Of a stretch of DNA of 64,000 nt, positions 2,863 through 56,235 are shown one piece after another. A program made the position numbers and the translations under genes. Source of the stretch: Candidatus Nomurabacteria bacterium (GTDB lineage Bacteria > Patescibacteriota > Minisyncoccia > Phycocordibacterales > UBA2100). The number at the start of each line of letters is the position of its first letter. The first letter of the stretch is position 1. Under the pieces are notes generated by a model. That model did no database searches. It was not told the origin of the DNA and saw only the letters and a list, made by a program, of their open reading frames with translations. Location: positions 1,699-65,698 of the forward strand of contig CALRHH010000004.1 of assembly GCA_943359395.1 (NCBI GenBank), written 5' to 3'.

Positions 2863-3918
2863 ATGTTCCACTCACTTGAGCGATACACGACAGAGAGCGT
2901 TACCTCAGGACATCCCGATAAAGTGTGTGACCAAATATCAGACGCTATTCTCGATGCGTGCCTCGCGCAGGACCCTTCGAGCCGCGTCGCTGTAGAATCT
3001 TTCGGCAGCCACGGTACGCTCATGCTCGGCGGAGAAGTAAAAACGAAGGCAAAAGTAAATTTTGAAAAAATCGCACGCAAGGTATACCGCGAAATTGGAT
3101 ACACGGATACCCTCAAGGTACTCAACACAATCGCCGTACAATCCCCCGACATCGCGATGGGAGTTGATACGGGCGGCGCGGGAGACCAAGGCATCATGTA
3201 CGGCTATGCGACGAACGAAACGAAAGAGATGCTTCCGCTCGGCGTCGTTCTCTCACATGCACTTGCCCATCGACTCGAGAAGCTCCGCCGTGACGGCACA
3301 CTGAAGTGGCTCAAACCTGACGGTAAAACACAGGTAACGATAAGCAATGGCAAGGTCATCACTGCGCTTTGCTCGACGCAGCACGACAAGAAAGTCTCAC
3401 AAGAAGAAATACGGAAGCAGCTCATCAAACACCTTTTCACTCCCGTACTCGGTTCTGTGAAAAACATCGAAATACTCGTGAATCCGACAGGACAATTTAT
3501 CATCGGTGGATTTACTGCCGATGCAGGTCTCACCGGCCGCAAGATAATGGTGGATACGTATGGCGGTGTCATGCCGCACGGAGGCGGGGCGTTCTCAGGA
3601 AAAGATTCAACAAAAGTAGACCGATCAGCCGCCTACATGTGCCGCTTCGTTGCCAAGAATCTTGTTGCAAATGGATATGCAAAGAAAGCTCTCGTCTCTG
3701 TCGCCTATGCTATCGGACGCATCGAGCCGGTCATGATTGAGGCATTTGATGAGAAAGGAAAGAACCTCACGAAGGTTGTGAACGAAAACTTCGATTTCCG
3801 TCCGCAGGCAATTATCGAACGCCTCGGCCTCCGTAAGCCAATATTCCGCGAAACAGCTGCATACGGACACTTCGGAGTAAGCGGCCGCCCGTGGGAAAAA
3901 ATAATCAAACTGAAGTAG
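2863..3918 (+). CDS. metK: S-adenosylmethionine synthetase.
   Basis: GHPDKVCDQISDAILDA, GGGAFSGKDSTKVDRSAAY, and a C-terminal ETAAYGHFG motif. Confidence 0.9.
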   Translation: MFHSLERYTTESVTSGHPDKVCDQISDAILDACLAQDPSSRVAVESFGSHGTLMLGGEVKTKAKVNFEKIARKVYREIGYTDTLKVLNTIAVQSPDIAMGVDTGGAGDQGIMYGYATNETKEMLPLGVVLSHALAHRLEKLRRDGTLKWLKPDGKTQVTISNGKVITALCSTQHDKKVSQEEIRKQLIKHLFTPVLGSVKNIEILVNPTGQFIIGGFTADAGLTGRKIMVDTYGGVMPHGGGAFSGKDSTKVDRSAAYMCRFVAKNLVANGYAKKALVSVAYAIGRIEPVMIEAFDEKGKNLTKVVNENFDFRPQAIIERLGLRKPIFRETAAYGHFGVSGRPWEKIIKLK

Positions 3919-3927
3919 AATGCTGGG

Positions 3928-4578
3928 ATGAATAAGGCTTTCATCTTTGACATGGATGGTGTCCTCGTTGATAGCGAGCGTATCTGGGCTGCGGAAGAGT
4001 ACGATTTCATGGCCGATTTTTTTGGAAAAAACATCGCGGATAAAATGGGCAGCACGATGGGAGTCAGCGTTAATGAGGTCTATCAAAGAGCCGTCAGCTT
4101 CGGGACGTCAATAAAAAAGGAAACGTATGTGAAAACGTTCGACGAAAAGGCACGCTCAATCTATTCACGCGCGTCCTTGATAGAAGGGACGGATGAGTTG
4201 GTTACATATCTAGTATCCCAAGGATTCAAACTTGCCCTCGTCTCGGCGTCCCGACTTAACGGAATTGAACAAGTTTTGCAACAACTCTCGTTCAAAGAAA
4301 AATTTGAGACTGTTATATCAATCAATGATGCCCGTCTTCCTTCGAAACCTGCACCTGATGGTTTTCTTGAGGCACTTCGACGGCTCGACGCCGAGCCGAA
4401 AGAATCTATCGTCCTCGAAGATTCCAATAGAGGCATCGCTTCAGGCAAAGCGGCAGGTTGTTATGTCATAGGCTACAACGGACACCTCACCGAGGGCTAC
4501 GAACAAATCGGAGCCGATGCATATGCCGACACAATGGATGATGTAATCAAGCTCGTTGGGTCATTCGACGGTAACTGA
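3928..4578 (+). CDS. HAD-superfamily hydrolase (beta-phosphoglucomutase-like).
   Basis: FIFDMDGVLVDSE motif I and a later EDSNRGIASGKAAG motif. Confidence 0.75.
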   Translation: MNKAFIFDMDGVLVDSERIWAAEEYDFMADFFGKNIADKMGSTMGVSVNEVYQRAVSFGTSIKKETYVKTFDEKARSIYSRASLIEGTDELVTYLVSQGFKLALVSASRLNGIEQVLQQLSFKEKFETVISINDARLPSKPAPDGFLEALRRLDAEPKESIVLEDSNRGIASGKAAGCYVIGYNGHLTEGYEQIGADAYADTMDDVIKLVGSFDGN

Positions 4579-6387
4579 CTTCGCAAGATTTCTCGGCCTG
4601 TCGGGGTTGTACCCATTCGCTTTCGAGAAGTAGTACGAGAAGAGATGGAGGGGTACAGCGTTCAAAATCGGGGAGAGCATTTCGCTCGTTTCTGGTACAA
4701 AAAATACATCACCTGCTACGCTTGCAACTTCTGTGTCTCCCTCTGTTGTAAGCGCAATCACTGGTCCTTTCCGCGCTTTTATCTGCTGAATGTTGGAGAG
4801 CATTTTCTCATACACGCTGTCCTTCGGTACAATCGCAAATGTGGGAAATTCCTCATCAATCATCGCGATGGGGCCGTGCTTCATCTCACCTGCTCCACAT
4901 CCCTCCGCATGAATGTAAGAGAGTTCTTTGAGCTTAAGTGCTCCTTCGTACGCGATAGGTAGATTATATTTCCTTCCAATGTAAAGAAAGTCTCGAACGG
5001 AGGCATACTTCTTCGCGAGCTCCTCGATCTCCCCTTTACGGTCGAGAATACTCTGGATCTTTTGTGGAAGCGACTTCAGCTCTTGGGCAATTTTCTCGCC
5101 CTCTGATTGAGACATCCCACGCTGCCGACCGAGAAAAACCGTGAGGAGGGCGAGTGCGACGAGTTGGGACACAAATGCTTTCGTAGAGGCAACACCGATT
5201 TCTGGGCCTGCGTGGTTGTAAACACCAGCGTCTGTTTCGCGCGCAATAGTGCTCCCCACCGTATTCACAATGCCGAGAGTAAGAGCACCATGTCGCTTTC
5301 CCTCTCTAAGAGCTTCAAGCGTGTCGGCTGTTTCGCCTGACTGAGAGATGCCGAGAACGATGGTGCGCTCGTTAATAACGGGTTTTCTGTATCGAAACTC
5401 TGAACCAAGCTCTACTTCAACGGGAATACCCGCGTACTCCTCAAGCATGTATTCTCCCACGAGCCCCGCGTAGTAGGCGGTGCCGCAGGCGACGATAATA
5501 ATCCTATCAATCTTCTCAAGCTGCTCCGCAACACTTTCGAGCCCCCCTAACTTTGCAAGACCTTTCTCAGGAATAAGTCTTCCACGTAAAGTATTCACAA
5601 CAACCTCGGGTGCCTCTAATATTTCTTTTATCATGAAATGCTCGTGCCCCCCTTTTTGCGCGGCCTCAGCGCTCCAGTCAATATCCGTAGTGGCCCGATG
5701 TACGTTTGACGCGTCGAGTTTGAAGATTTTATGACCATCAGAAGAAATCACCGCCACATCCCCGTCTTCGAGAAAGACGACCTTACGAGTGTGCGGCAAG
5801 ATAGGTGACGGGTCTGACGCAACGAAGTGCTCGCCGTCCCCAAGCCCGAGCACGATGGGTGAGCCCATGCGCGCAGCAATTATTTTGTCTGGTTCCATTT
5901 TGTACTGAAGCGCAATACCGTACGTACCTCGTACCTCGTTGAGTGCTGCAAGCGCGGCCTTTTCAAAACTCTTTTCCGTCTTCAAGTGCTCTTCTACGAG
6001 ATGCGCCAGTACTTCAGTATCGGTTGCAGACTTGAACTCATGTCCGGCCACCTCAAGCTTCTTTTTCAATTCCTTAAAGTTCTCGATGATGCCATTGTGC
6101 ACAACCCATATTTCCCCGCTCCCATCACTGTGCGGGTGTGCGTTTTGCTCAGTAGGTTCTCCATGTGTCGCCCAGCGTAAATGCGCGATACCGCTCTTCC
6201 CTTTAAAATCTTTTGGTATCTTTTTTCGTAACTCCGCGACAGCGCCTGGGGCTCGTACAACACCTGCTTCTGGCATGAAGATACCAGCCGAATCGTACCC
6301 TCGGTATTCGAGAGAAAGAAGCCCGTCGAGCAGGACTCCGCCAGCTTCTTTTCCCTTCTTACCCGTATAAGCAAAAATCCCACACAT
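4561..6387 (-). CDS. glmS: Glutamine--fructose-6-phosphate aminotransferase.
   Basis: MCGIFAY N-terminal nucleophile, two SIS domains, and a C-terminal DRPRNLAKSVTVE. Confidence 0.95.
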   Translation of the reverse strand: MCGIFAYTGKKGKEAGGVLLDGLLSLEYRGYDSAGIFMPEAGVVRAPGAVAELRKKIPKDFKGKSGIAHLRWATHGEPTEQNAHPHSDGSGEIWVVHNGIIENFKELKKKLEVAGHEFKSATDTEVLAHLVEEHLKTEKSFEKAALAALNEVRGTYGIALQYKMEPDKIIAARMGSPIVLGLGDGEHFVASDPSPILPHTRKVVFLEDGDVAVISSDGHKIFKLDASNVHRATTDIDWSAEAAQKGGHEHFMIKEILEAPEVVVNTLRGRLIPEKGLAKLGGLESVAEQLEKIDRIIIVACGTAYYAGLVGEYMLEEYAGIPVEVELGSEFRYRKPVINERTIVLGISQSGETADTLEALREGKRHGALTLGIVNTVGSTIARETDAGVYNHAGPEIGVASTKAFVSQLVALALLTVFLGRQRGMSQSEGEKIAQELKSLPQKIQSILDRKGEIEELAKKYASVRDFLYIGRKYNLPIAYEGALKLKELSYIHAEGCGAGEMKHGPIAMIDEEFPTFAIVPKDSVYEKMLSNIQQIKARKGPVIALTTEGDTEVASVAGDVFFVPETSEMLSPILNAVPLHLFSYYFSKANGYNPDRPRNLAKSVTVE

Positions 6388-7477: not shown

Positions 7478-8594
7478 TCGGATACATCGCCTTTATTTCT
7501 TTTGCGAGATAGGGGTTCCACATTGCTCCCGTTGCGGTCATGACAACATCTGCCCCCGCTTCGCGGTATTCCTTGAAGTCCTGCGGAACGGTAACTCCGC
7601 CGCATCCGACTATCGCAAACTTCCCGCCCATCTTTTCGCGCGCTGCTTTCAGACGATGCGTCATGTCGAGACCTGCCCACTTTATCGCCGCACCACACAC
7701 GCCGCTCCGCTCGCGTTTCGGTCCCGGAAGCGCTTGATTTCCCTTCTCATCTAGGATGACCGCGGAAATCGTATTAATAGCGGATATCGCGTGTCCATAT
7801 TTTTCGGCGATGTGTGCGAGTCGTTCAATATCCGCATCGTCCTTGTAGTAGCCAACTTTTAGTATGAGGGGAAGCTTCTTTATCTTGGCGCGTACAGCCT
7901 CGCACACACGCTCGGTCATGTACAGATTGTAACAAACTAAACCTTCATTGCCGATATTTGGGCATGAAAGGTTTGCCTCCAGTATCGGGGCACTCGTCCG
8001 AGCGGCGAGCGCGGCTGCCTGTGCAAAGTCCGCAACGAATTCATCTTCTGTCTGCTTCTCTTTCACCGTGCCCATAAAACTCATGACCATGACTTGCCAC
8101 TTGTGAGCGTACACCACCGCCTTCTTCGCGTCTTCAAGCCATGTCTCGGAGGGACGTGATGGAACTCCGAAAGAATTTGTAATCGAGAGCGGTTCTGAAT
8201 ACACGGGAACAGCGGTAACGGGCCTGCTTGCTTTCTCGAGAGGCAAATCACCTTCGACCTTGACGCCGAGTACGTTTGGAAAAGGGTGGCACGGGAATTC
8301 ATTTGCACGGACCGTCTTGTACACCGCGATATCGAATCCTTTATCGAACGCTCCTTTCACGTAGCCGCTGTTCAATAGAGGGCCAGCGGGAATGCCGAGT
8401 GGATACGCGATTTTCTGACCGAGAAAATCGAAGCGCGGTCTACCGTCTGGCACCACCACCCCATCGGCAAAGCCGCCGAAGGGACCTTGCTTATAGTTGT
8501 CTTCATAGGACTTGAGAGGGTCGTAGAAAGGAGTCTGCAACATAGCTTCAGAATACCACAATCTCATTTTCCGGCACTTGGTATTTTCTTCCAC
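7470..8594 (-). CDS. Dihydroorotate dehydrogenase / dihydropyrimidine dehydrogenase family FMN TIM-barrel oxidoreductase.
   Basis: FAIVGCGGVTVPQDFKEYREAGADVVMTATG C-terminus and a LKVGYY flavin-binding region. Confidence 0.6.
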   Translation of the reverse strand: MEENTKCRKMRLWYSEAMLQTPFYDPLKSYEDNYKQGPFGGFADGVVVPDGRPRFDFLGQKIAYPLGIPAGPLLNSGYVKGAFDKGFDIAVYKTVRANEFPCHPFPNVLGVKVEGDLPLEKASRPVTAVPVYSEPLSITNSFGVPSRPSETWLEDAKKAVVYAHKWQVMVMSFMGTVKEKQTEDEFVADFAQAAALAARTSAPILEANLSCPNIGNEGLVCYNLYMTERVCEAVRAKIKKLPLILKVGYYKDDADIERLAHIAEKYGHAISAINTISAVILDEKGNQALPGPKRERSGVCGAAIKWAGLDMTHRLKAAREKMGGKFAIVGCGGVTVPQDFKEYREAGADVVMTATGAMWNPYLAKEIKAMYPNA

Positions 8595-10266: not shown

Positions 10267-10827
10267 CTATCCCCCTTCTTGCCATGTGGCTATAGACGGA
10301 AACTGATGAATGAGGTTTAGCACGTTGAGCACAAGGTTGTCCCGAATCATGTAGAGGACGAAGAGTTCGAGTGTGAGGCCACACAAGATAACCATCCACA
10401 CGGGGAGCCTCCGCGCGAGGAAAAAACCAAGTACCATCGCGACCGTATCCGAGATGGAGTTAACGATGCTATCCCCCGTATATCCTTGCGCGAGTGCTTG
10501 CTCGCGATAGTGATTAATCACCGTTGGTGTATTTTCGACGATCTCCCAAGCGGCTTCTATACCAACCGCGAAAAGGAGGCGTTTCCACACCGACGTGCGG
10601 GGAAAGAAATACCAAAGACCTAAGTAAAAAAGGAAGCCGTGGATAAGGTGCGAAAAAGTATACCAATCGGTCAAGTGTTGGGAATTTCCACTGCTCAAGA
10701 CCACTCCTTCCCAAAGTTTTACATCCCCACACACACAAAGAGGAGGCTGACCGAATAGATACAAAACTACACCCTGAATCACTATCAATCCAAACACAAG
10801 AAAGATATATTTCCGCGGCTCCGTCAT
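10267..10827 (-). CDS. Membrane protein, DUF2585/UPF0314-like.
   Basis: Multi-TM protein with a conserved AWEIVENTP motif. Confidence 0.5.
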   Translation of the reverse strand: MTEPRKYIFLVFGLIVIQGVVLYLFGQPPLCVCGDVKLWEGVVLSSGNSQHLTDWYTFSHLIHGFLFYLGLWYFFPRTSVWKRLLFAVGIEAAWEIVENTPTVINHYREQALAQGYTGDSIVNSISDTVAMVLGFFLARRLPVWMVILCGLTLELFVLYMIRDNLVLNVLNLIHQFPSIATWQEGG

Positions 10828-10839
10828 ATTCCCATGGTA

Positions 10840-11373
10840 TCAGGAAAAAGAAACGATTATATTACGTAATTCTTTACGAACTCTTTTGTGGTCTGGAACC
10901 GCTCTCGCGACAAGCGTCCAGAATCTTCCCGAGTGATTCATTTCGGCAAGATGACAGAGCTCGTGGACAACGACATAATCTGCAATCTGCGGCGGGAGTA
11001 CTGCTATTCTGTAATTGAAACTTAAATTGCCCGCGCTTGAGCAACTACCCCAGCGCAACTTTTGTGCGCGGATGCTTATTCTATTGTATGAGAATCCATA
11101 GTACTTTGCAAAATGCATGCAACGTCCCTGCGCAAGCGCTAGCGCATTCCTTTTGAGGCGTGTAATGTCGTTTCTTGGTATTCGTATCACACTCTTACTC
11201 ATCGTTCGGCGGAGGTGTTTATGTATCCACGCGGTGTGCCTTTCTACAAAATTCTCAACGGCGCCCGTGCCAAGAAATATGGGCGCTGTCACAATAACTC
11301 TTGAGTCGGGAAAAACCGAGAGCCGCATTGCCCGCGCCCGTGCGCTTCGTTTGAGCATGTAGGAGATAGCCAT
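10840..11373 (-). CDS. YgjP/DUF45 (M48-like) zinc metallohydrolase.
   Basis: HELCHLAEMNHS HExxH motif in the YgjP context. Confidence 0.75.
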   Translation of the reverse strand: MAISYMLKRSARARAMRLSVFPDSRVIVTAPIFLGTGAVENFVERHTAWIHKHLRRTMSKSVIRIPRNDITRLKRNALALAQGRCMHFAKYYGFSYNRISIRAQKLRWGSCSSAGNLSFNYRIAVLPPQIADYVVVHELCHLAEMNHSGRFWTLVARAVPDHKRVRKELRNIIVSFS

Positions 11374-11376
11374 GTG

Positions 11377-12330
11377 TTAAAAAAGACTCGAAGCGCAACG
11401 CGCATTTAACGCGACCGAATCATCCTTCGTAAGAGAAAGTCTCTTCCCTTGATTGACTTTATACATGATTGCTTCCACATCCTCGACATGTCCCAAGCCC
11501 AGCGCGTGCCCAAGCTCATGCGCAAGGACACGCACAAGCTCCGTGCGGTTTGAGTACTCAAAGATATCAATACGCTGAGAGCCACCCTCACTCACATACT
11601 CACCCTCTTCAAATTCTCTCCCCGTCGAGGCACCGGCCTGATTATATCTCTCGACGTTGAGATTGAGTTCCACTATGAGCTTGTTGAGTGATGTTCCCAC
11701 CGCGTTTAGAATTTCGATATCGGCATTTAATGCACTTTCCGCTGTTTTAATCCCCTCGGCCTCTACACTAAGCGCAGCCTTCTCAGTCTGCAAACGGTCA
11801 TATTCGGGCGGTGGAGCTCCTCCCTGCCGATTCCATTTCGCAACCTGCATATTGTATGTTTTTTGTCTCGATTCGTATGCGGCGACGCCCGCATCGAGAG
11901 CCTTCTTCGCAGAGGCAATGCGTGCAGCACGGCTGTCATATTGAGATTTCAGGGCATCGAAAGAAGATGTACTCTTGTCAATCTGTATTCCAGAGGCCGC
12001 CATTGTATCACTCGCCTTTTGGCGATAATCGTAGACAAAATTAATCACAACATCTCCCCCTTCGTCCTTATACTCGAAAAGGTCGTTGCCCGGTGACGTC
12101 TCCCAGATTGACTCCGCCTCTTTAAGGTCGGCCACGGCTATTGTTTTCGATATGCCAAATCGTGTATCCACAGAGCCGAGCGAATAGGTAATCGGGCTTC
12201 GGCACGGCAGAAATCGTGCTTCTACCTGTCTCGTTACCTGCATCACCTCATCGCGATGCGCGAAAACAGCGTAAGTGACACTTCCTATTATCCCAATCAA
12301 GACAAGAACATCGAATGTGCGTCGTATCAT
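11377..12330 (-). CDS. Membrane-anchored metzincin-type zinc metalloprotease with a coiled-coil region.
   Basis: N-terminal TM helix, then LAHELGHALGLGHVED (HExxHxxGxxH). Confidence 0.65.
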   Translation of the reverse strand: MIRRTFDVLVLIGIIGSVTYAVFAHRDEVMQVTRQVEARFLPCRSPITYSLGSVDTRFGISKTIAVADLKEAESIWETSPGNDLFEYKDEGGDVVINFVYDYRQKASDTMAASGIQIDKSTSSFDALKSQYDSRAARIASAKKALDAGVAAYESRQKTYNMQVAKWNRQGGAPPPEYDRLQTEKAALSVEAEGIKTAESALNADIEILNAVGTSLNKLIVELNLNVERYNQAGASTGREFEEGEYVSEGGSQRIDIFEYSNRTELVRVLAHELGHALGLGHVEDVEAIMYKVNQGKRLSLTKDDSVALNARCASSLF

Positions 12331-17373: not shown

Positions 17374-18888
17374 CTAGAGTCCTCCGAGCAACGCGTTCAG
17401 CTTCGCTCGTGTATTCGGACCAACGTAGCCGTATCCCGAGTCTCCTTTTTTCGCGATGCTGTATTTCACTTGGAATTTCTGTACGGCACGCGCAGTCGCC
17501 GGCCCGAAGTAGATCGTCTCACGTCCCAGAGAACCTACGCCGCTTGCCGCGACTTGCGTGCCCGCATCGGAATTGAGGATTTTCTGGAGCACCCGGACAT
17601 CTTCGCCGATTGTTCCCAAAGTAAGACCCCGTGCGAGCGGACGAGAAGAAAATTCCGACTCTACAATCGTTCCTTGCTCAGCCACCTTTTTGAGTACGTC
17701 CCAGATGGCGGGGTCCTGTCCGCCGTCGAGCTTGAATATCGAGACGCCGCGCACCCCGAGCTTCTTCGCGAGATCAATCTTCTGCTGGACCGATTGCGCA
17801 TCTGGCCAATCAAGGAGACGAAACCCGAGATGCGAATTGTACGTATCAGCGTACGCCGTGGCAGCAAGGGCAGCGAAAAGTGCCGATGTAGGACCGAGAG
17901 AGACGGGCGTGGTGCTCGTTGCAGCATTTGCAACATACGTGAAGTACATTTCCCCTGCCGTGTTACGTTGCGGTGTAATACCATACTGTGCGGCGATATC
18001 TGTCGCATACCGAGGATTGAATACCCAGAGGATACCGTACGAATATTCTTTGCCTTCATACGCCGTGACGTCATATTCGTAACCGTATGTCGGAACGCCG
18101 ATAAGTATTTTGCTTTTAGAAATATCTTTCATCATAAACCGGATGCTTTTTTCTACCCAAGCGGGGTCAGCAACCGGGGCGTAGAGTTGCGTAGAAGAAG
18201 CCGCTGTGGCCACAAGCTTGCGGTCGATGCCTTGCTGGTCGTAGGTCATAATACGTACTCTGTCACAGTACTTGTTGATTTCTTTCAGATCATTGGCGTA
18301 AACACCGGCATTCTCCGGAAGAGATGTCCCCCAATACTGATCTTCGAGCGGTGTACGAGACTCGACGGAACACATAATCATTTTGGAGCCCATGCGCATA
18401 TCCAGGCCCTTCAAAAAAGTGGAGAAGTGATCCTTGTCTTTTGCATACTTGCCCTCAAAGTCGATATCGATACCATCGTAGCCGCCCTCCTTCACAAGTG
18501 CGACGATACGGTCCTCAAGTGCAATACGTGACTTCTGATTGCTCAATAATTGGTGTAGGGTTTCTCCCCCACTCGACATAACGGTTGGAATGACACGAAC
18601 ATTTTTTGCCCTGGCAGTGGCGATAAACGAGAGCCAAGGCTCAGCCTCAAGCGCACCGTTGTCACGCAAGGTCCCGTCGTTGCGAATTGTGTAGACGAAC
18701 GGATTCACTTCTGTGAGCGTATCTAAATGGGGCAAGGTATCAGCCGTCCCCGTAGCGACGCGCCAGTATGGTATCCAGCCTGTCACTTCGAACGGTGCTT
18801 CCGTCGCGGCTGACGCCGTCAGAGGAACGGTAAAAACGAGTGCGCACAGAAAAACAAAAGAATTTCTCATACCCCGTGAGAGAAACAC
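17374..18888 (-). CDS. Secreted glycoside hydrolase family 18 (chitinase / peptidoglycan-hydrolase-like) with a C-terminal peptidoglycan-binding domain.
   Basis: GGYDGIDIDFE (DxxDxDxE) GH18 catalytic motif and a C-terminal VRVLQKILNSDAGTQV..ARAVQKFQ PG_binding_1-like repeat. The true start is more likely the ATG at 18871, which gives the signal peptide MRNSFVFLCALVFTVPLTASAA. A repeat element overlaps the region just upstream. Confidence 0.8.
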   Translation of the reverse strand: MFLSRGMRNSFVFLCALVFTVPLTASAATEAPFEVTGWIPYWRVATGTADTLPHLDTLTEVNPFVYTIRNDGTLRDNGALEAEPWLSFIATARAKNVRVIPTVMSSGGETLHQLLSNQKSRIALEDRIVALVKEGGYDGIDIDFEGKYAKDKDHFSTFLKGLDMRMGSKMIMCSVESRTPLEDQYWGTSLPENAGVYANDLKEINKYCDRVRIMTYDQQGIDRKLVATAASSTQLYAPVADPAWVEKSIRFMMKDISKSKILIGVPTYGYEYDVTAYEGKEYSYGILWVFNPRYATDIAAQYGITPQRNTAGEMYFTYVANAATSTTPVSLGPTSALFAALAATAYADTYNSHLGFRLLDWPDAQSVQQKIDLAKKLGVRGVSIFKLDGGQDPAIWDVLKKVAEQGTIVESEFSSRPLARGLTLGTIGEDVRVLQKILNSDAGTQVAASGVGSLGRETIYFGPATARAVQKFQVKYSIAKKGDSGYGYVGPNTRAKLNALLGGL

Positions 18889-31604: not shown

Positions 31605-31636
31605 AACTCGCAAAAAGTGTGCGCCGTGAGGCGCAC
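31605..31636 (-). terminator. Intrinsic terminator downstream of the VKOR gene.
   Basis: GTGCGCC-GTGA-GGCGCAC hairpin followed on the minus strand by ACTTTTTGCG. Confidence 0.55.
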
Positions 31637-36627: not shown

Positions 36628-37527
36628 CTATACCTTCTCTCCGAGACTATCCAAATTCCTCTCCGCGTCGACAAAGGGTTGGATGTCTCCCGCAAGTACT
36701 TTCTCGACATTCCGCTCCTCGTGCCCGGTGCGGTGATCCTTTACGAGCTGGTACGGGTGCAGAACGTACGAGCGAATCTGACTCCCCCACTCTATTTTTG
36801 TCGAAGCTCCCGCAGAAAGCCCTCGCGATTCCTGCATCTGCGCGGCTTCGCGCAACTGGTAGAGTTTACCGCGCAACATTTCAAGTGCCTTCTCTCTGTT
36901 TTGTAGTTGGCTGCGTTCAGAAGTGACCTGCACACTCATGCCCGTCGGGATATGCGTCATGCGTACCGCCGTGTCGCGCTTGTTTACGTTCTGCCCGCCG
37001 GGACCGCCCGAGCGCGCGACCGATATATCGAGATCTTTTTCTGGAATGTGTGTCTCGGGCACATCTTCGAGCTTAGGGAGTACCTCAACGAGCGAAAATG
37101 AAGTTTGTCGCTTCCCTGCGGAATTGAACGGCGACATACGTATGAGACGATGTACGCCCGCTTCGTGCTTGAGTGCGCCGTACGCACCCGAGCCGTCGAC
37201 CTCAAATGAGATACTTCGAAAACCTCCCATTGAATTTTCGTTGGATGAGAGTAGTCCTGTGTTCCAACCTTTCGTTGCTGAATATTTTTTGTACATCTCA
37301 AAAAGAATACGCGAGAAGTCTTCGGCATCGTCGCCGCCCGCCCCAGACACGATTGAGACTATTGCGTCACTTTTATCGTACTCACCTCCACCAGCGAGCT
37401 TTGCCTTCAAATCTTGGTATTCCTTGAGGACTGCCTGCGCTTTCACTTTGTCAGTCCAAAAATCCGCTGCTCCCATCGCGGTTTCTATCTCAACAATTTT
37501 GGCTTCTATAATCTCTTTAGATTGCAT
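36628..37527 (-). CDS. prfB: Peptide chain release factor 2, a short form.
   Basis: SPF tripeptide (RMSPFNS) and a GGQ motif (SGGPGGQNVNK). At 299 aa the N-terminus is truncated relative to canonical RF2, and a tRNA gene sits directly upstream. Confidence 0.85.
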   Translation of the reverse strand: MQSKEIIEAKIVEIETAMGAADFWTDKVKAQAVLKEYQDLKAKLAGGGEYDKSDAIVSIVSGAGGDDAEDFSRILFEMYKKYSATKGWNTGLLSSNENSMGGFRSISFEVDGSGAYGALKHEAGVHRLIRMSPFNSAGKRQTSFSLVEVLPKLEDVPETHIPEKDLDISVARSGGPGGQNVNKRDTAVRMTHIPTGMSVQVTSERSQLQNREKALEMLRGKLYQLREAAQMQESRGLSAGASTKIEWGSQIRSYVLHPYQLVKDHRTGHEERNVEKVLAGDIQPFVDAERNLDSLGEKV

Positions 37528-45497: not shown

Positions 45498-46241
45498 TTA
45501 TTCGATGTAGCGCGCGTCTTTCAGGACTTTCTCATAAAGCGTGACGACGCGGCGGGCTTCGCGCAGCGTTAGCTGGTGCGCACTTCCATCATGTGCGATT
45601 TTGTTGCGAATCTTGTGCGCCTCCCATGCAAGGTCTATAGAATTAAAACTTGCACGGTCGATAGTGCGCATTTTATCCGCCATGGTTTCCCCTTTGTAGC
45701 CCATGACATCAAGCAGCTCGTTGAGCATGATGTCGGCCTCGAGGATTGCGAGTCGCCATGATTGTTCGGAGTCCGAGCCTATTTGGTCGAGTATCCTATT
45801 CCAACGCAATTGTGTCTTCGGGATATCTTGCGCGATGACAGAGTGCCGAGCTTGATAAAATCTTCGCCGCTCTGTTTGACGTATCTGAAATACACGAATC
45901 GAACAGTAAATGACGAGAGCGCTCAGACACAATGTGACGAGGAGCGAGAACGCTACAAACGTACTCCACTGCTGGAAGAACTTGTCATACGTGCCTGGCG
46001 CTGACGCCAGTTGTAGATACTGAACGACCTGTGGAGCCGATACGGCGGTCGTAATAGGAGTGGCAAGCGGCGACACAGGCTCCCCTGCCGCGGTTGGAAC
46101 ACCCGTTCCTGCGACAGTCATCACTGTTCCAGGAATCCACTTAAAAGCAACCTCGCTGAGAAACCATAGAGCCGAACCGAGGGTACTTCCGGACGAAGGA
46201 TCTGGATTCATGGACAGATTATAACTCACCGTTAGAAGCAC
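45498..46241 (-). CDS. Membrane-anchored protein with a C-terminal HEPN-like (DUF4145-like) domain.
   Basis: One TM helix (FVAFSLLVTLCLSALVIYC), then a C-terminal DLAWEAHKIRNKIAHDG region with an R-x4-H HEPN-type motif. Confidence 0.45.
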   Translation of the reverse strand: MLLTVSYNLSMNPDPSSGSTLGSALWFLSEVAFKWIPGTVMTVAGTGVPTAAGEPVSPLATPITTAVSAPQVVQYLQLASAPGTYDKFFQQWSTFVAFSLLVTLCLSALVIYCSIRVFQIRQTERRRFYQARHSVIAQDIPKTQLRWNRILDQIGSDSEQSWRLAILEADIMLNELLDVMGYKGETMADKMRTIDRASFNSIDLAWEAHKIRNKIAHDGSAHQLTLREARRVVTLYEKVLKDARYIE

Positions 46242-46281
46242 TATCGGCCCGCACCTGCTGGCGCGTGCCCGAAACTCCTCA

Positions 46282-46330
46282 TGTCGACATTAGCCGACAT
46301 TCGGCCCCTTCGGGCGCCTCACGGCGGTTT
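46282..46330. repeat. Family-2 small repeat element, intergenic, downstream of gatA.
   Basis: TAGCCGACATTCGGCCCCTTCGGGCGCCTCACGGCGG. Near-identical copies lie at 54978..55025 and, inverted, at 52505..52550. Confidence 0.7.
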
Positions 46331-46346
46331 CGCCTTTGGGCGGGGA

Positions 46347-47750
46347 TCAGACATCTTTGCCGATGGCAAAGAGCGTCTGTTCCCCGCCCCACGCGCCGAT
46401 TATCTGGAAACCTACCGGCAACTTTTTTCCATCACGCTCGACAGTGCCCCCTGGCACCGATATGGCCGGTACTCCCGCAAGATTCACTGGAACCGTGAAA
46501 ATATCTTCAAGGTAGAGCGCCACTGGATCGGAGTTCTTTTCTCCCAACTTAAACGCGGGCGAAGGAGTTGTCGGCATAACAATAGCATCGACCGTCTCGA
46601 ATGCTTTTGCAAAATCCGCTCGGATGAGCTCACGCACCGAACGCGCTTTTCGGTAGTACGCATCGGCGTAGCCTGAGGAGAGTACGAATGTACCTACGAG
46701 AATTCTGCGCCGTGTTTCCTTACCAAATCCTGCAGCCCGAGACTTTGAGTAAACCTCACCGATGTCGTCGGCGGAAACCGAGAGCCCGTATCGGATACCA
46801 TCGAGACGCGCGAGATTGGTCGAGACCTCCGCCGGATTAATGATGTAGTACACGGCAAGTGCGTACCGCAAAGAGGGTAACGCGACATCAACAATCGAGT
46901 ATCCAGCATTTTTCAATGTCTCCAACGTGTTTTCAAATTGTGTATGAATCTCAGGACTAAGGTCTTTCAAAAATTCTCTCGGCACTCCTATCACCTTCCG
47001 TTCAGCCACGGGCAAATCTTTTGTGTCGGGCAGAGATGTACTATCCATCGGGTCATGACCACGAATTGCATCAAAAAGGATTTTTGCATCACCGACACTC
47101 TTTCCGAGCGTCCCTATTTGGTCGAGAGAGGATGCCGCAGCGATGAGACCTGAGCGAGAAACAGCGCCGTACGTAGGCTTCATTCCTGCGATACCGCAGA
47201 AAGCTGCAGGCTGACGAATAGAACCACCTGTGTCGCTTCCAAGAGCGGCAAGCGCCATTCCCGCAGCCACGGCTGCGGCAGAGCCGCCCGAAGTACCACC
47301 AGGAACGCGTGAGGTATCGTGAGGGTTTTTCGTCGGTCCGTATGCCGAATTCTCCGTCGAGCTGCCAAGTGCGAACTCATCCATATTTGTCCGACCGAGA
47401 AATACCACACCCTGTGCTTTGAGTTTTGAAATAACAGTAGCGTCATACGAAGCCTTATAGTTTTCCAACATTTTCGACGCCGCGCTCGTAATGCGCCCCT
47501 CTATCAGGATGTTATCTTTGACCGCGATAGGAATTCCTGTAAGCGGCTGTGACTCCGCTCGCGCAATTATCGCATCCGCCGCCCTTGCCTCTTCCCGCGC
47601 AGAATCCGCCCATACTTCGAGGTATGCATGGATCTCTCCATCTTTTTTCTCTATCGCATCAAGATACGCATTCGTGAGGTCGAGCGCAGAATATTCCTTG
47701 GCATCCAATGCCCGCCGCGCCTCTGTGATGGTGAGTGTCGAGAGGTCCAT
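46347..47750 (-). CDS. gatA: Glu-tRNA(Gln)/Asp-tRNA(Asn) amidotransferase subunit A.
   Basis: Amidase signature GGSSGGSAAAVAAG and the Ser-cisSer-Lys triad context. Confidence 0.95.
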   Translation of the reverse strand: MDLSTLTITEARRALDAKEYSALDLTNAYLDAIEKKDGEIHAYLEVWADSAREEARAADAIIARAESQPLTGIPIAVKDNILIEGRITSAASKMLENYKASYDATVISKLKAQGVVFLGRTNMDEFALGSSTENSAYGPTKNPHDTSRVPGGTSGGSAAAVAAGMALAALGSDTGGSIRQPAAFCGIAGMKPTYGAVSRSGLIAAASSLDQIGTLGKSVGDAKILFDAIRGHDPMDSTSLPDTKDLPVAERKVIGVPREFLKDLSPEIHTQFENTLETLKNAGYSIVDVALPSLRYALAVYYIINPAEVSTNLARLDGIRYGLSVSADDIGEVYSKSRAAGFGKETRRRILVGTFVLSSGYADAYYRKARSVRELIRADFAKAFETVDAIVMPTTPSPAFKLGEKNSDPVALYLEDIFTVPVNLAGVPAISVPGGTVERDGKKLPVGFQIIGAWGGEQTLFAIGKDV

Positions 47751-50631: not shown

Positions 50632-51291
50632 CTAGTAGTGAAGTTCCACGGAACGCTGCAATGCCCGCGCACTCGTCAATATTGACGCGCAATTCGTACT
50701 ATACCCGTCCGCACGGATAATGGTGCGTATTGAGTCTGTCGGCGCTCCCGTAACGCACACCCCGTCTGCGTTAAACGTCCCCTGACACTTTGTGACAGAT
50801 ACCTGCGCGCAGAGATTGCCGGAAATCGTAGCGTCCTCAAAAAGATCCATCTTTTGGGACGTCATCGTATACGGATAGTACGGAGGTGCCGTCGGTCGAC
50901 CTTCTGCCGCTAAGAGTTTTGTGTCACACGTTGGGTTGGGGTTATTACACGACGCATTTATCAAATCCGTCGAACTTGCAAAATAGTTGCAGCGGAAATC
51001 CCAATAGAGGGCACACTCAGCTGCGGTGTCAGCAGCATAAAACGCGAATTGCGAGTCCCGTCCGATGGCTGAAAGTAAAACCTGTTTCTGTGCGATGCCG
51101 AAAATCGCAGCACCGACCGCGAGAACAATAGACGAAACGAGCGCGGCCAGAAGCAGCGTAAAGCCTGAATTCGCCGCGCGGCGCCGCCCTAGGCGGTTTG
51201 ACTGTCGGCCTGCGGCCGATGGGAGAAGATTCACGTCGGAACGAACACGTTCCGACGAGATAAGCTGTGTCATCCGGTGTATAAATTTCAT
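50632..51291 (-). CDS. Type IV pilin-like protein (pseudopilin / minor pilin) with a long leader.
   Basis: RRRAANSG|FTLLLAALV prepilin cleavage/methylation motif preceded by a ~40-aa arginine-rich leader. Confidence 0.7.
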   Translation of the reverse strand: MKFIHRMTQLISSERVRSDVNLLPSAAGRQSNRLGRRRAANSGFTLLLAALVSSIVLAVGAAIFGIAQKQVLLSAIGRDSQFAFYAADTAAECALYWDFRCNYFASSTDLINASCNNPNPTCDTKLLAAEGRPTAPPYYPYTMTSQKMDLFEDATISGNLCAQVSVTKCQGTFNADGVCVTGAPTDSIRTIIRADGYSTNCASILTSARALQRSVELHY

Positions 51292-51292
51292 A

Positions 51293-51943
51293 CTATTGCT
51301 GTCCTACGCCGTCATCGACCCAGCGATACATATTCTCCGAAATGGTGAATGAACGCTCTTGAATAGGTCCGGTCTGCCATGTGACGGTCACCGTAACACG
51401 TATCTCGTCCATGCTCCCCGTCACCTGGTAGGCGTGTAGAGTCCGCGTGAAATATGTCGGTGTCCACGCACCCAGGTCATCGCCAAGCCCCGGATAGCCG
51501 TACAGAGTCAGGTTTGTCTGAAGTGGCGGACATGTTCCATTGCACCGAACGATGGCGGTCGACGCGTCTCCCTTGCGACCATCGATTGTAAACGGCTCAT
51601 TGAGTCGAGGAATGAGTCCGAAGATGTCCGGTGCCCCTTCAGCACTTCCCGCGATAACGAGAATTTGGGAATCTCGAATACTGCGCACAGCCTCGATTGC
51701 CTCCTGTGCAAGGTAGAAAGCCGTTATTTGGTCTCGCGCATAGTACGCAGAACCGAGACTTTTCGACGCGAGAGCCATCGGAGACACCACCGCGACAGAC
51801 AAGAGCATCACCGCGACAAGCGTCTCGATGAGAGTAAAACCAGCTTGTAGCTTGTAGCTTGTAGCTGACAGAGGCCAGAATCTTCTGAATTTTTTGCTTA
51901 CTACAAGCTGTAAGCTGTAAGCTGTAAGCTTGAATTCCATCAT
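51293..51943 (-). CDS. Type IV pilin-like protein (pseudopilin) with a long leader.
   Basis: KLQAG|FTLIETLVAV prepilin motif. The leader contains a heptamer inverted repeat. Confidence 0.7.
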   Translation of the reverse strand: MMEFKLTAYSLQLVVSKKFRRFWPLSATSYKLQAGFTLIETLVAVMLLSVAVVSPMALASKSLGSAYYARDQITAFYLAQEAIEAVRSIRDSQILVIAGSAEGAPDIFGLIPRLNEPFTIDGRKGDASTAIVRCNGTCPPLQTNLTLYGYPGLGDDLGAWTPTYFTRTLHAYQVTGSMDEIRVTVTVTWQTGPIQERSFTISENMYRWVDDGVGQQ

Positions 51944-52647
51944 AGATCAAGTACTCGTTGGACTGCCGCGGCTTGAAGATGGAAAGTCGTACGGCTGGAG
52001 GATCCCGGAGCCCCGGCGCTCCCCTTTATAACAATAACGACTTTAGGCTGTACCGTGTCGCCACGCGTCGTACCTACTACGTAAAAAAGCATTTCATCGA
52101 TAGTGACTTCGGGAGCGGTGATGGGTGCGGCACCTGAAATCGAACCGCTCGTTGACCTCTCCAGCCGGTGGGTTACGGTATTGAAATTATATATCCAGTG
52201 CGGGTCTGACGTACTGCCGAAAGACTGGAACTCGAACGTGGTACTCCCTCCCGTGCAATCATTCGGACCGCCCGTATTACCCGTGCATCCAGTTGAGCCG
52301 TCGAAATCATTGCCCATGCGGATAGAGCGCGCCATACCGTCGAGCGCGATGTTGAGGTTATTCATGACGGATTGTAGCGCCTGCGCTTTCCTATTTGCAC
52401 TCACGAGAGCGAGAAGCGCCCCGACACAAACCACCATGACGATTGAGAATAATGCAATCGCCACAACCATTTCAACGAGTGTAAATCCTGAATTCGCCGT
52501 GAGGCGCCTGACCCCGCCGTGAGGCGCCCGAAGGGGTCGCAGGTCAGCTTTGCTGGCCGGAGACGGGTCACGTCGGAATGAGAACATTCCGACGAATCTA
52601 TATTCCGACGTCAAAAATCTTGCGAGCTTGTGTTTGATCTTATCCAT
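51940..52647 (-). CDS. Type IV pilin-like protein (pseudopilin) with a long leader.
   Basis: RRLTANSG|FTLVEMVVAIALFS. The leader MDKIKHKLARFLTSE is homologous to MKFIHRMTQLISSE of the pseudopilin at 50632..51291. Confidence 0.7.
   Translation of the reverse strand: MDKIKHKLARFLTSEYRFVGMFSFRRDPSPASKADLRPLRAPHGGVRRLTANSGFTLVEMVVAIALFSIVMVVCVGALLALVSANRKAQALQSVMNNLNIALDGMARSIRMGNDFDGSTGCTGNTGGPNDCTGGSTTFEFQSFGSTSDPHWIYNFNTVTHRLERSTSGSISGAAPITAPEVTIDEMLFYVVGTTRGDTVQPKVVIVIKGSAGAPGSSSRTTFHLQAAAVQRVLDL
52505..52550. repeat. Family-2 repeat in inverted orientation plus a partial tandem copy, lying in frame inside a pseudopilin leader.
   Basis: CCGCCGTGAGGCGCCTGAC then CCCGCCGTGAGGCGCCCGAAGGGGTC. 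It encodes RPLRAPHGGVRRL of the leader of the pseudopilin at 51940..52647. Confidence 0.65.
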
Positions 52648-54807: not shown

Positions 54808-54977
54808 AATATCGTAAAGTTTACTTGCTAAATTACCCTAGTAACGAGGATGACTACCATTGTATACCTATACGCCCCCCATCTAAAGGCGCCTGTGGAT
54901 AATGAATCTTCACCCTTCTAGGGTTTGTGGTTAATTTACGACGCACGAACGTACTCGTTCGTGCGTGACACTCCTCG

Positions 54978-55025
54978 TATCGGCTTTTAGCCGACACTCG
55001 GCCCCCATGGGCGCCTCACGGCGGT
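54978..55025. repeat. Family-2 small repeat element, intergenic, between pilC and the major pilin.
   Basis: TTTTAGCCGACACTCGGCCCCCATGGGCGCCTCACGGCGG. Confidence 0.7.
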
Positions 55026-55026
55026 G

Positions 55027-56235
55027 TCAAAACGCCGAAGCAATATTGTAGATTGGCAACAGTACGGACGCGAGAAGTATCGCGACGCCGAGAGCCAAAA
55101 TCACAATCATCAAAGGCTCAATGAGGCTGACGAGCGTATCCACGGCGTTGTTTACTTCGCGCCGGTAAAACCGCGCCATAGTTTCGAGTATCTTTCCCAT
55201 ATTTCCTGTCTCTTCTCCAATTTTGACCATGGCCACGACGATACCGGGAATTTCTGGATGTTTGCGCAGAGCCTCGGAAAGGGGCATGCCGCCTTTGACG
55301 TCGACGGCCGCATCGGCGAGCACTTTCTCGTAGACCGCATCCCCCACCACGAGTCCCGTGATCTCCAGGCCGCGCAATACCTGAATACCGCTGCGAAGCA
55401 TCGTCGAGAGGTTATCCGCGATGCGCGAAAGAAATATCTTGCGGTAAATATTGCCGATAGCCGGCGTTTCGAGGCGCGCGCGAGAGAGTACTTCTCTTCC
55501 CCGCGCCGTGCGCGAGAACCGATACAGAAAAATACCGCTCACCACGAGAAGTATGAGGACGAGGAAAATGTAGTGGGTAAAGAATTGCGACATCCCTATG
55601 ACCACTTTGGTATAAAGCGGCAGATCTTGCCCGACTTCCGAAAGCATTCCTGCGAGCTGCGGAATGACGAGGGTCATCATGAGGACCATGACCACGACGA
55701 ACGTAAGCATGATGAAAGCCGGATAAACCAAAGCGTTGCGAGCTTTCTGAGTAAGTTCAAAATTCCTGTCCAAATACTCGGCGAGGAAGGAAAATGTTTC
55801 GTCGAGCTTTCCGCTCTCTTCACCCGCGCGGACCATATTTACGTAAAACGAGGAAAAGATTTCCGGATGTCGCGCGAGGGCTGCGGAAATACTGCTTCCG
55901 CTTTGGAGATCGTTGCCGATTATTGTGAGCTTCTCTCCCAAAGCCGGCGTCCGTGCTTCGGCCGCGAGGAGCCTAAAGGCACGGAGAGCAGATACCTGAG
56001 CCTCAAAGAGTGTCGTTATCTGGCGGGAGAGCATCACGACGTCCGCATTCGTCACTCGGTCAAAAAGCGCGAGGCGTTTCGAGAGAAGAGACGCGCCCTC
56101 GGCCGGGTCGATGCCTGATATTACGAGTCCGCGCCGCTGTAAAGCCGCAATTGCGATATCCATGTTGACCGCATCGATAGTGCCTTGCCGCTCATTGCCT
56201 TCCGCATCGAGGGCAGTGTAGGTAAAAATAGCCAT
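55027..56235 (-). CDS. pilC: Type IV pilus assembly platform protein PilC (GspF family).
   Basis: Two T2SS_F repeats. Confidence 0.9.
   Translation of the reverse strand: MAIFTYTALDAEGNERQGTIDAVNMDIAIAALQRRGLVISGIDPAEGASLLSKRLALFDRVTNADVVMLSRQITTLFEAQVSALRAFRLLAAEARTPALGEKLTIIGNDLQSGSSISAALARHPEIFSSFYVNMVRAGEESGKLDETFSFLAEYLDRNFELTQKARNALVYPAFIMLTFVVVMVLMMTLVIPQLAGMLSEVGQDLPLYTKVVIGMSQFFTHYIFLVLILLVVSGIFLYRFSRTARGREVLSRARLETPAIGNIYRKIFLSRIADNLSTMLRSGIQVLRGLEITGLVVGDAVYEKVLADAAVDVKGGMPLSEALRKHPEIPGIVVAMVKIGEETGNMGKILETMARFYRREVNNAVDTLVSLIEPLMIVILALGVAILLASVLLPIYNIASAF

Follow-up and report, generated by a model that had tools for sequence, protein, structure and literature searches.

Among described repeats, those closest in behaviour to the element analysed here are the Rickettsia palindromic elements, as translated repeats, and the REP/BIME, Correia and ERIC sequences, as structured repeats at gene ends. 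Rickettsia palindromic elements are dispersed palindromic repeats of ~100 nt that lie in frame and are translated within genes, occupy permissive positions and are also found between genes. REP/BIME and REPIN/RAYT sequences are structured repeats at gene 3′ ends or within operons, with covarying stems and with mosaic and tandem clusters, and REP/BIME sequences have been proposed to form a 3′ structural block on mRNA. The Correia elements of Neisseria and the ERIC/IRU sequences (~100–150 nt) lie beside genes, pilin loci among them, are co-transcribed, fold as RNA and can alter the ends of genes or supply stop codons, and the IS200/IS605-derived PATE have strand-specific folded ends.

We analysed 64 kb of the genome of an uncultured groundwater-type bacterium (hereafter the window, the whole stretch of DNA from position 1 to 64000), which holds a repeat sharing these features in part. 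Unlike a Rickettsia palindromic element, which is one long hairpin, it forms a four-way junction plus a hairpin and belongs to an unrelated host lineage, so that the two are likened by behaviour; its coding insertions are confined to the prepilin leader, cleavage of which would leave the mature protein unchanged. As in the Rickettsia case, it is present in frame in conserved ORFs, which are kept open across species and carry frame-restoring indels. REP/BIME sequences are single imperfect palindromes with a 5′ GTAG and a RAYT, whereas here neither was found (for RAYT, in the sampled loci), GTAG being present only as one variant of the third-helix loop. The present repeat also differs from them in its low and clustered copy number in the sampled loci, in a strand-specific fold with GNRA and GNA loops, and in having some copies inside ORFs. 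Correia and ERIC/IRU sequences carry sequence-conserved terminal inverted repeats and a TA duplication, neither of which was found here, and the element likewise lacks the conserved terminal repeats and duplication that define a MITE. With PATE it shares a possible short adjoining target (CCGTAR, at three junctions), but PATE have two subterminal hairpins, while the element has a multi-helix junction, no orientation bias and no TnpA/TnpB in the sampled loci.

Its covarying stems and fixed junction nucleotides resemble those of functional RNAs such as the Rfam families, but a search of Rfam 15 (4227 models, including small ribozymes and riboswitches) gave no family match at the gathering thresholds or at E up to 10. 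In the window only tRNAs reached the gathering thresholds, and the best weak matches were to FinP (E 9.4) and snoZ188 (E 0.39). Plasmid and phage collections searched for the element gave no match, and a limited full-text literature search returned no description of it, nor of such repeats in candidate-phyla-radiation genomes.

Extent and distribution of the repeat

An earlier note on this DNA had claimed a dispersed, REP-like structured repeat of ~40 nt in three copies. The sequences that it described are present where it placed them, and the repeat is indeed dispersed and structured, with 25 copies and covarying stems. The unit is larger, however, at 92–97 nt, and consists of a 10-bp hairpin and a four-way junction (covariance model and alignment). 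The window holds four full copies, the additional one at 51163–51259 on the minus strand. They score 104, 98, 74.5 and 53 bits with the covariance model, and the next best match reaches 18.5 bits. All four lie within 9 kb of the pilus–gatCAB region, and the other 55 kb of the window hold none. About 56 of the 65 long ORFs of the window are on the minus strand, a strong gene-strand bias. The copies, remnants and host genes are as follows.

54940..55032, plus strand in model orientation: copy w2 (covariance model R1, 103.8 bits, E 1e-22); the minus strand folds, with the GNRA loop, and is also the mRNA strand of pilC/pilin
46244..46335, plus strand in model orientation: copy w1 (98.3 bits), extending the coordinates of the earlier note; the folding strand is the minus strand
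52506..52596, minus strand: copy w3 (74.5 bits, E 1e-15); in model orientation it reads in the sense of pseudopilin B
51163..51259, minus strand: copy w4, type II, with a longer third helix (53.1 bits, E 1e-10)
52487..52506, minus strand: 20-nt sequence GGCGCCTCACGGCGAATTCA immediately following w3, left from the 3′ end of an older type-II copy and encoding RRLTANS ahead of G|F
46336..46349, minus strand: possible remnant TGATCCCCGCCCAAAGGCG of an older copy (tentative), supplying the gatA TGA
31619..31636, no strand given: GC hairpin with a GTGA loop, 12 nt of which also occur in the fourth helix; outside the family (10.6 bits, E 1.4)
51940..52647, minus strand: pseudopilin B (N_methyl, PF07963); its leader of 54 aa has the end ...RRLTANSG|FTLVEM
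50632..51291, minus strand: pseudopilin D, leader MKFIHRMTQLISSERVRSDVNLLPSAAGRQSNRLGRRRAANSG|FTLLL
55027..56235, minus strand: pilC (T2SSF), stop codon inside w2
46347..47750, minus strand: gatA (amidase); C-terminal residues and stop codon are element-derived in related species

The exact 14-mer GGCGCCTCACGGCG occurs at four sites, 46313 (+), 55010 (+), 52515 (−) and 52495 (−). Allowing up to two mismatches raises the count to six, against 0.73 expected, and six is reached in 0 of 100 shuffles. The core GCCGTGAGGCGC, also reported from the terminator hairpin at 31619–31636, is literally there, but on its model score that hairpin falls outside the family. The reported partial tandem duplication is real (20-nt units at 52487–52506 and 52507–52526). 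The remnant at 52487..52506 matches the 3′ end of w4 and of the pseudopilin B leader copies in two related loci, L107 and L110, and a full copy followed by a 3′ remnant was also found at L116:7705 and L107:16690. For the tentative remnant at 46336..46349, the comparison is with L116, where GAT GTC TGA CCC CGC CC starts a full copy.

An exact-core scan of 185,579 species genomes gave 95 matches, of which only L017, L038 and L087 are real copies; all three are candidate-phyla-radiation MAGs, and the similarity reaches ~70 nt upstream of the core. The other 92 are chance matches in GC-rich DNA, as are seven core matches in viral contigs, and neither set includes a covariance-model match. The model was correspondingly specific, with 0 matches in 754 kb of chance-match loci holding the same core. 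A core scan of metagenomes returned four contigs representing two distinct loci. Syntenic loci from about ten related species, in pieces of 20 kb, were fetched via homologues of pseudopilin B, several of them named Kaiserbacteria or Parcubacteria by their sources. With the covariance model we found 25 copies in 220 kb of related candidate-phyla-radiation (Kaiserbacteria-like) loci, a sample biased to this locus by the way in which it was drawn.

The fold and its strand

A first alignment of seven sequences over ~92 nt was folded with RNAalifold, and a covariance model was then built. In the seven-sequence fold, a 10-bp hairpin (P0) leads into a four-way junction whose closing helix (P1) surrounds the hairpins P2, P3 and P4; 11 of the 29 pairs of the fold are compensatory. 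In the model-fitted alignment of the 25 copies, 93.3% of pair cells were paired and 19 of 29 pairs changed on both sides, while an independent MAFFT/RNAalifold analysis of the complement strand gave 98.6% of cells paired and 21 of 31 pairs changing on both sides; because the copies are related to each other, these counts are of non-independent events. Pairing on the model strand was matched in 0 of 500 shuffles, and slid controls gave 25–43%. The opening GCCGA-CAY-TCGGC hairpin proposed in the earlier note does not correspond to the conserved pairing; covariation backs a TCGGC-loop-GCCGA pairing one step upstream. L038 offers an example of this P2 pairing, reading TCTGC...GCAGA and then TCGGC.

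Four lines of evidence place the folding strand on the complement of the orientation that the earlier note had called plus. Non-Watson-Crick cells on the model strand comprise 23 A·C against 2 G·T, and the A·C cells are therefore G·U pairs on the complement; they occur in copies of both orientation classes (15 sense, 7 antisense). The complement is the more stable strand in 25 of 25 copies, by a mean of 6.6 kcal/mol with RNA parameters and 2.7 kcal/mol with DNA parameters. Its loops are GYGA, which is GNRA with variation confined to the N position, and C-GNA-G, with a GAAGA pentaloop instead of GNRA in four copies. In the complement alignment P2 reaches 8 bp with a conserved G·U, followed by tandem G·A and two more covarying pairs. 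The junction of the complement fold is nearly devoid of unpaired nucleotides; the stems covary and the junction nucleotides are invariant. Terminal complementarity is limited to the closing helix of 6–7 bp, which both varies and covaries (GACAC, GACCC, GAAAC, GAATC, GAACC), and the 10-bp hairpin lies outside it.

With the fold on the complement, the folding strand of w1 and w2 is the mRNA strand of gatA and pilC, respectively, and that of the two leader copies is antisense to their gene. The minus strand of w2 has an MFE of −51.5 kcal/mol (z −6.2), and that of w1 folds at −49.2 kcal/mol, as against −38.3 kcal/mol for the plus strand.

Other identities were tried and rejected. A tRNA-like cloverleaf would have the wrong arm sizes, and ARAGORN and the tRNA model found only the seven real tRNAs of the window (1–64000). 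A small ORF on the plus strand at 46281 is not conserved in w2. For an independent small-RNA gene there is no consistent promoter upstream. An intrinsic terminator does not fit, as no U-tract follows the terminal hairpin in 11 of the 11 copies at gene 3′ ends, and a consensus terminator scan found none at w1 or w2.

Gene ends, intergenic gaps and prepilin leaders

Altogether, 18 of the 25 copies are extragenic or overlap a stop codon only, and the other seven lie in leader-coding sequence. Eleven copies are at gene 3′ ends with the folding strand in the mRNA, and 10 overlap or lie ≤1 nt from the stop codon. These sites are the 3′ ends of pilC (the window and L119), the major pilin gene (L107, L118 and L119), gatA (the window, L107, L110 and L116), ftsX (L087) and a histidine kinase gene (L038). 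The closing helix usually opens with TGA and supplies the stop codon of pilC, of gatA in L116, of ftsX and of the kinase gene; in w2, the pilC TGA (55027–55029) forms the first three bases of the closing helix on the folding strand. In L110, the element contributes the last 28 nt of the gatA ORF. Orientation of the post-gatA copy is uniform across four species (the window, L107, L110 and L116), and w1 starts 12–16 nt past the gatA stop codon, depending on whether the closing helix or the unpaired flank is taken as reference, and ends ~70 nt ahead of the −10 box of the next gene. Seven intergenic copies have the other orientation, four of them adjoining a GTTATCCACA-type motif that precedes promoters. 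The 25 include copies at a kinase/regulator pair and upstream of a SWIB gene.

The motif itself consists of GTTATCCACA, 27–29 nt and then GG(G)TATACAAT, and is found upstream of the major pilin gene in four species (in the window at 54859–54900, minus strand). A compact form, GTTTATCTCACGGGGTATACT, occurs four to five times in the window (also at 18866, 22671, 30673 and 54144), always in the sense of minus-strand genes. The motif in its two forms is probably a lineage-specific promoter or regulator site, and is likely to be what the earlier note had called its first repeat family. Downstream of gatA, a conserved gene starts 5–6 nt past a GTTATAATCT box in three species (window 46205–46241, minus strand; L107 16790–16830; L110 17225–17245), which suggests that its mRNA is leaderless or near-leaderless.

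All seven leader copies are in the sense orientation, opposite to the folding strand; five belong to pseudopilin B genes and one each to a C and a D gene. Each leader ORF has its ATG 1–4 nt from the stop codon of the upstream gene and is open through the element. As had been reported, the leader of the pseudopilin at 51940–52647 includes the minus-strand copy in frame, encoding RPLRAPHGGVRRL, and no start codon separates that copy from G|FTLVE, since in-frame ATG, GTG or TTG codons are found only at codons 1, 12 and 21. Full-length w3 occupies codons 18–47 of the 54-aa leader, an arrangement shared with L115/P0011, and w4 takes up most of the 43-aa leader of pseudopilin D and is 93% identical to the B-leader copy of L107. 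None of the leader copies has a start codon 3′ of the 40-nt core described earlier. The last in-frame ATG of the window B leader (codon 21) is inside the P0 hairpin, and in type-II leaders an in-frame GTG falls where P0 meets P1; both are within the 5′ portion of the element.

A comparison of homologues, which the earlier note had proposed, found pseudopilins with the segment and others without it. The element is present in the B leader of six other species (P0002, P0003, P0011, P0016, P0020 and P0053). Across 111 homologues with a recognisable cleavage site, leaders have a median of 17 aa (range 3–64) and most are without the element, a common form being the ~10-aa MRRKxTHTAG|F; the L017 orthologues of C and D have leaders of 5 and 19 aa without it. 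A word-indexed search with the leader peptide gave no match and an exhaustive one a single match, to an unrelated 984-aa protein, so that neither was informative.

Two reading frames of one element are in use, SSERARSDVNLLPSAAGRQSNRLGRRLTANSG and FRRDPSPASKADLRPLRAPHGGV. Most leader copies encode SSERARSDVNLLPSAAGRQSNRLGRRLTA(N/D)SG, but in the window and L115 indels of +16 and +20 nt lead to an unrelated peptide, the net change being a multiple of three that keeps the frame. Leader DNA is 95% identical between L107 and L110, compared with 71% for the mature-protein DNA, and the corresponding values for the window and L115 are 91% and 68%. Since the leader DNA is more conserved than the mature-protein DNA, the constraint is on nucleotides rather than on the peptide. 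The proteins have the features of prepilins, with ends of the form ...ANSG|FTLVEM and ...ANSG|FTLLL, a PF07963 domain and a Peptidase_A24 encoded three genes upstream. Judged from these sequences, the leader copies are most likely translated and then discarded.

Leader DNA of other minor pilins contains heptanucleotide tandem repeats (window 51840–51943, minus strand; L107 9323–9420, 10704–10790 and 11329–11440). In the window, (CAGCTTA)x3 and (AGCTACA)x3 encode TAYSLQ...SYKLQAG|F, in L107 (CGCCATA)x4 encodes RHTPYAIRHT, and at least 20 of the 111 homologues show an xRxTxYxxRxT pattern from CTACGAA or ATACGAA units. By analogy with the opa CTCTT repeats of Neisseria, the 7-nt unit suggests slipped-strand on/off switching. 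In L110, a gene called as pseudopilin C (10639–11487) has a whole GIY-YIG nuclease domain (~95 aa, PF01541) in frame directly before ...SGKG|FTLIETL. This fusion may be a gene-calling artefact or a case of overlapping genes, as a normal prepilin could have its start at an internal Met located 19 aa ahead of the cleavage site; as called, it suggests that larger selfish ORFs can occupy the leader too.

Turnover and competing explanations

Sites differ in occupancy from species to species. The copy after the pilin gene is present in L107, L118 and L119, while the window and L110 have ordinary terminators there; L107 has a normal terminator as well, its copy lying ahead of this and behind the pilin stop codon. 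At the site separating pilC from the pilin gene, the window and L119 have an antisense copy and L017, L116 and L117 a sense copy, whereas L107, L110 and L118 have none. One junction, CCCGTAG|GTGA, is common to nested copies, and three junctions read CCGTA(G/A)|GTGA, two of them inside the third-helix loop of an older copy. The earlier suggestion of a mobile or structural element holds for structure, and mobility would follow from same-site presence and absence across species and from the nested copies. No direct repeat that could be a target-site duplication flanks the 25 copies, ACCTA flanking one nested copy only, and none of the 25 has sequence-conserved terminal inverted repeats. We found no transposase or Y1/HUH gene in the window or in ~200 kb of related loci, and a scan of ten odd-oriented or unknown ORFs of the window found no transposase. 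Solo or partial copies (P0 plus the first closing-helix strand) lie beside full copies, in small arrays, at L038 3498–3600 (−), L118 8484–8522 (−) and L116 7646–7732.

A structured repeat of REP/MITE-like character, restricted to its lineage and able to survive only at permissive sites, including a leader removed by a peptidase, is in our view a reasonably probable identity for the element. Candidate-phyla-radiation genomes are tiny and tightly packed, and in so compact a genome copies would last only where extra DNA is tolerated. One strand adopts the compact four-way junction, in which the closing helix surrounds two hairpins, of the GNRA and C-GNA-G types, and a long arm containing G·U and tandem G·A; a 10-bp GC hairpin comes after it. 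Behind or overlapping stop codons, the folded strand would form the mRNA 3′ end and probably serves as a generic 3′ structural block, like REP. The gap ahead of promoters would be another permissive site, and the minor-pilin leader a third; there the element would be translated in frame in the opposite orientation and cut off by prepilin peptidase at G|F, tolerated as a passenger because the leader is discarded. Copies turn over from species to species and recombine with one another, which yields nested, mosaic copies. Against this reading, the confinement of the window copies to 9 kb is more in keeping with a locus-linked role or with local spread than with a genome-wide REP, and the covarying stems, the fixed junctions and the post-gatA copy kept in four species suggest selection on structure in place.

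A structured repeat family would thereby persist in a compact genome by way of a few permissive places, among them a cleaved leader that leaves the mature protein unchanged, providing a concrete case of selfish or structural DNA tolerated within coding sequence. The fold is a new RNA or single-stranded DNA fold, well supported by 21 covarying pairs. There is a caution for annotation, too: where a prepilin leader is unusually long, or an adjacent gene has an odd C-terminus or stop codon, the element can be the source.

Several features of the fold would suit an RNA dedicated to acting in cis on the type IV pilus and gatCAB operons, in which the folded junction in the mRNA, as a processing, stability or protein-binding signal, would set the relative expression of operon segments, and the leader copies and those at other genes would be secondary. 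RNA-type features (GNRA with GAAGA substituting for it, the conserved G·U and the tandem G·A) are found on one strand only, junction nucleotides are fixed while stems covary, in each sampled species the copies concentrate between pilC and gatA, and the post-gatA copy is equally oriented in the window, L107, L110 and L116. We nevertheless regard this as unlikely, since no position is universal: L118 is without the gatA and B-leader copies, L110 is without any copy near the pilin gene, and L017 has one copy only, in the opposite orientation. The folded strand is antisense to local transcription in 14 of the 25 copies, copies are also found at ftsX, at the kinase/regulator pair and before the SWIB gene, and the L107 copy between pilin stop and terminator looks like a passenger. 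The strand specificity of the fold, being independent of local transcription direction (A·C cells in 15 sense and 7 antisense), might instead point to single-stranded DNA. The element would then be a non-autonomous remnant of an IS200/IS605 or REP-RAYT single-strand DNA transposon, served by an HUH/Y1 enzyme encoded elsewhere and inserting 3′ of, for example, CCGTAR. C-GNA-G and G·A are very stable in DNA too, the complement is favoured in 25 of 25 copies with DNA parameters, and three independent junctions read CCGTA(G/A)|GTGA, two of them in the third-helix loop of an older copy. We give this reading little weight, however, because a search of the window and ~200 kb of related loci found no such enzyme, the other junctions share no target, and the equivalence of GNRA and GAAGA is an RNA-type feature. 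Orientation, at ~11 to 14, also lacks the strong bias to the lagging-strand template that this mechanism would predict, given that ~56 of 65 long ORFs in the window lie on one strand.

Opposed copies around the pilin genes, at 54940 (+) against 52506 and 51163 (−) and at 51163 (−) against 46244 (+), raise the idea of a DNA inversion site, at which pilin segments would be flipped as in a shufflon or in fim-like phase variation; an inverted pair also flanks the regulator-kinase operon of L038, and the copy between pilC and the pilin gene is oppositely oriented in the window and L017. Inversion between the leader and gatA copies would, however, destroy pseudopilin B and leave ligA and gatCA separated from their promoter. 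The arrangement is the same across four assemblies of one species, no recombinase gene is present in the locus (the sole integrase is in the variable right flank of L111), and the window and L017 copies lie at different distances from pilC and are therefore separate insertions, all of which makes inversion very improbable. The leader peptide itself could be functional, as a chaperone-like or targeting pro-peptide with the DNA repeat as a by-product, and SSERARSDVNLLPSAAGRQSNRLGRRLTA(N/D)SG is near-identical in five species and two paralogues. Yet the window and L115 read the same DNA in another frame into an unrelated peptide, the leader DNA is almost without synonymous change where the mature part has diverged to ~70%, the same DNA is untranslated at gene ends, and most homologues have 10-aa leaders; we find this the hardest of the readings to credit. 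We also entertain, as a doubtful pairing, that two linked readings hold jointly: a new compact four-way-junction RNA class at candidate-phyla-radiation mRNA 3′ ends, and prepilin leaders as a safe harbour. The RNA, having GNRA and GNA loops, tandem G·A and a terminal hairpin, would be, for example, an exonuclease-resistant or protein-recruiting module, or even a ribozyme, and its DNA would be mobile. Any insert between the start codon and G|F (the element, heptamer arrays or the GIY-YIG ORF) would be translated and then removed by the peptidase, resembling an intein in being removed after translation but differing in that a host protease would do so.

Other features were observed in the course of the analysis. 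In L107, a diversity-generating-retroelement-like pair (bAvd and an RVT_1 reverse transcriptase; 3523–5205) that is absent from the window is inserted between the response-regulator gene and pilT of the pilus cluster of this close relative, and the space separating pilC from the pilin gene is taken up by a long palindrome unlike the element (7610–7740). In the window, the ORF at 36628–37527 encodes a release factor with PCRF and RF-1 domains in only 299 aa.
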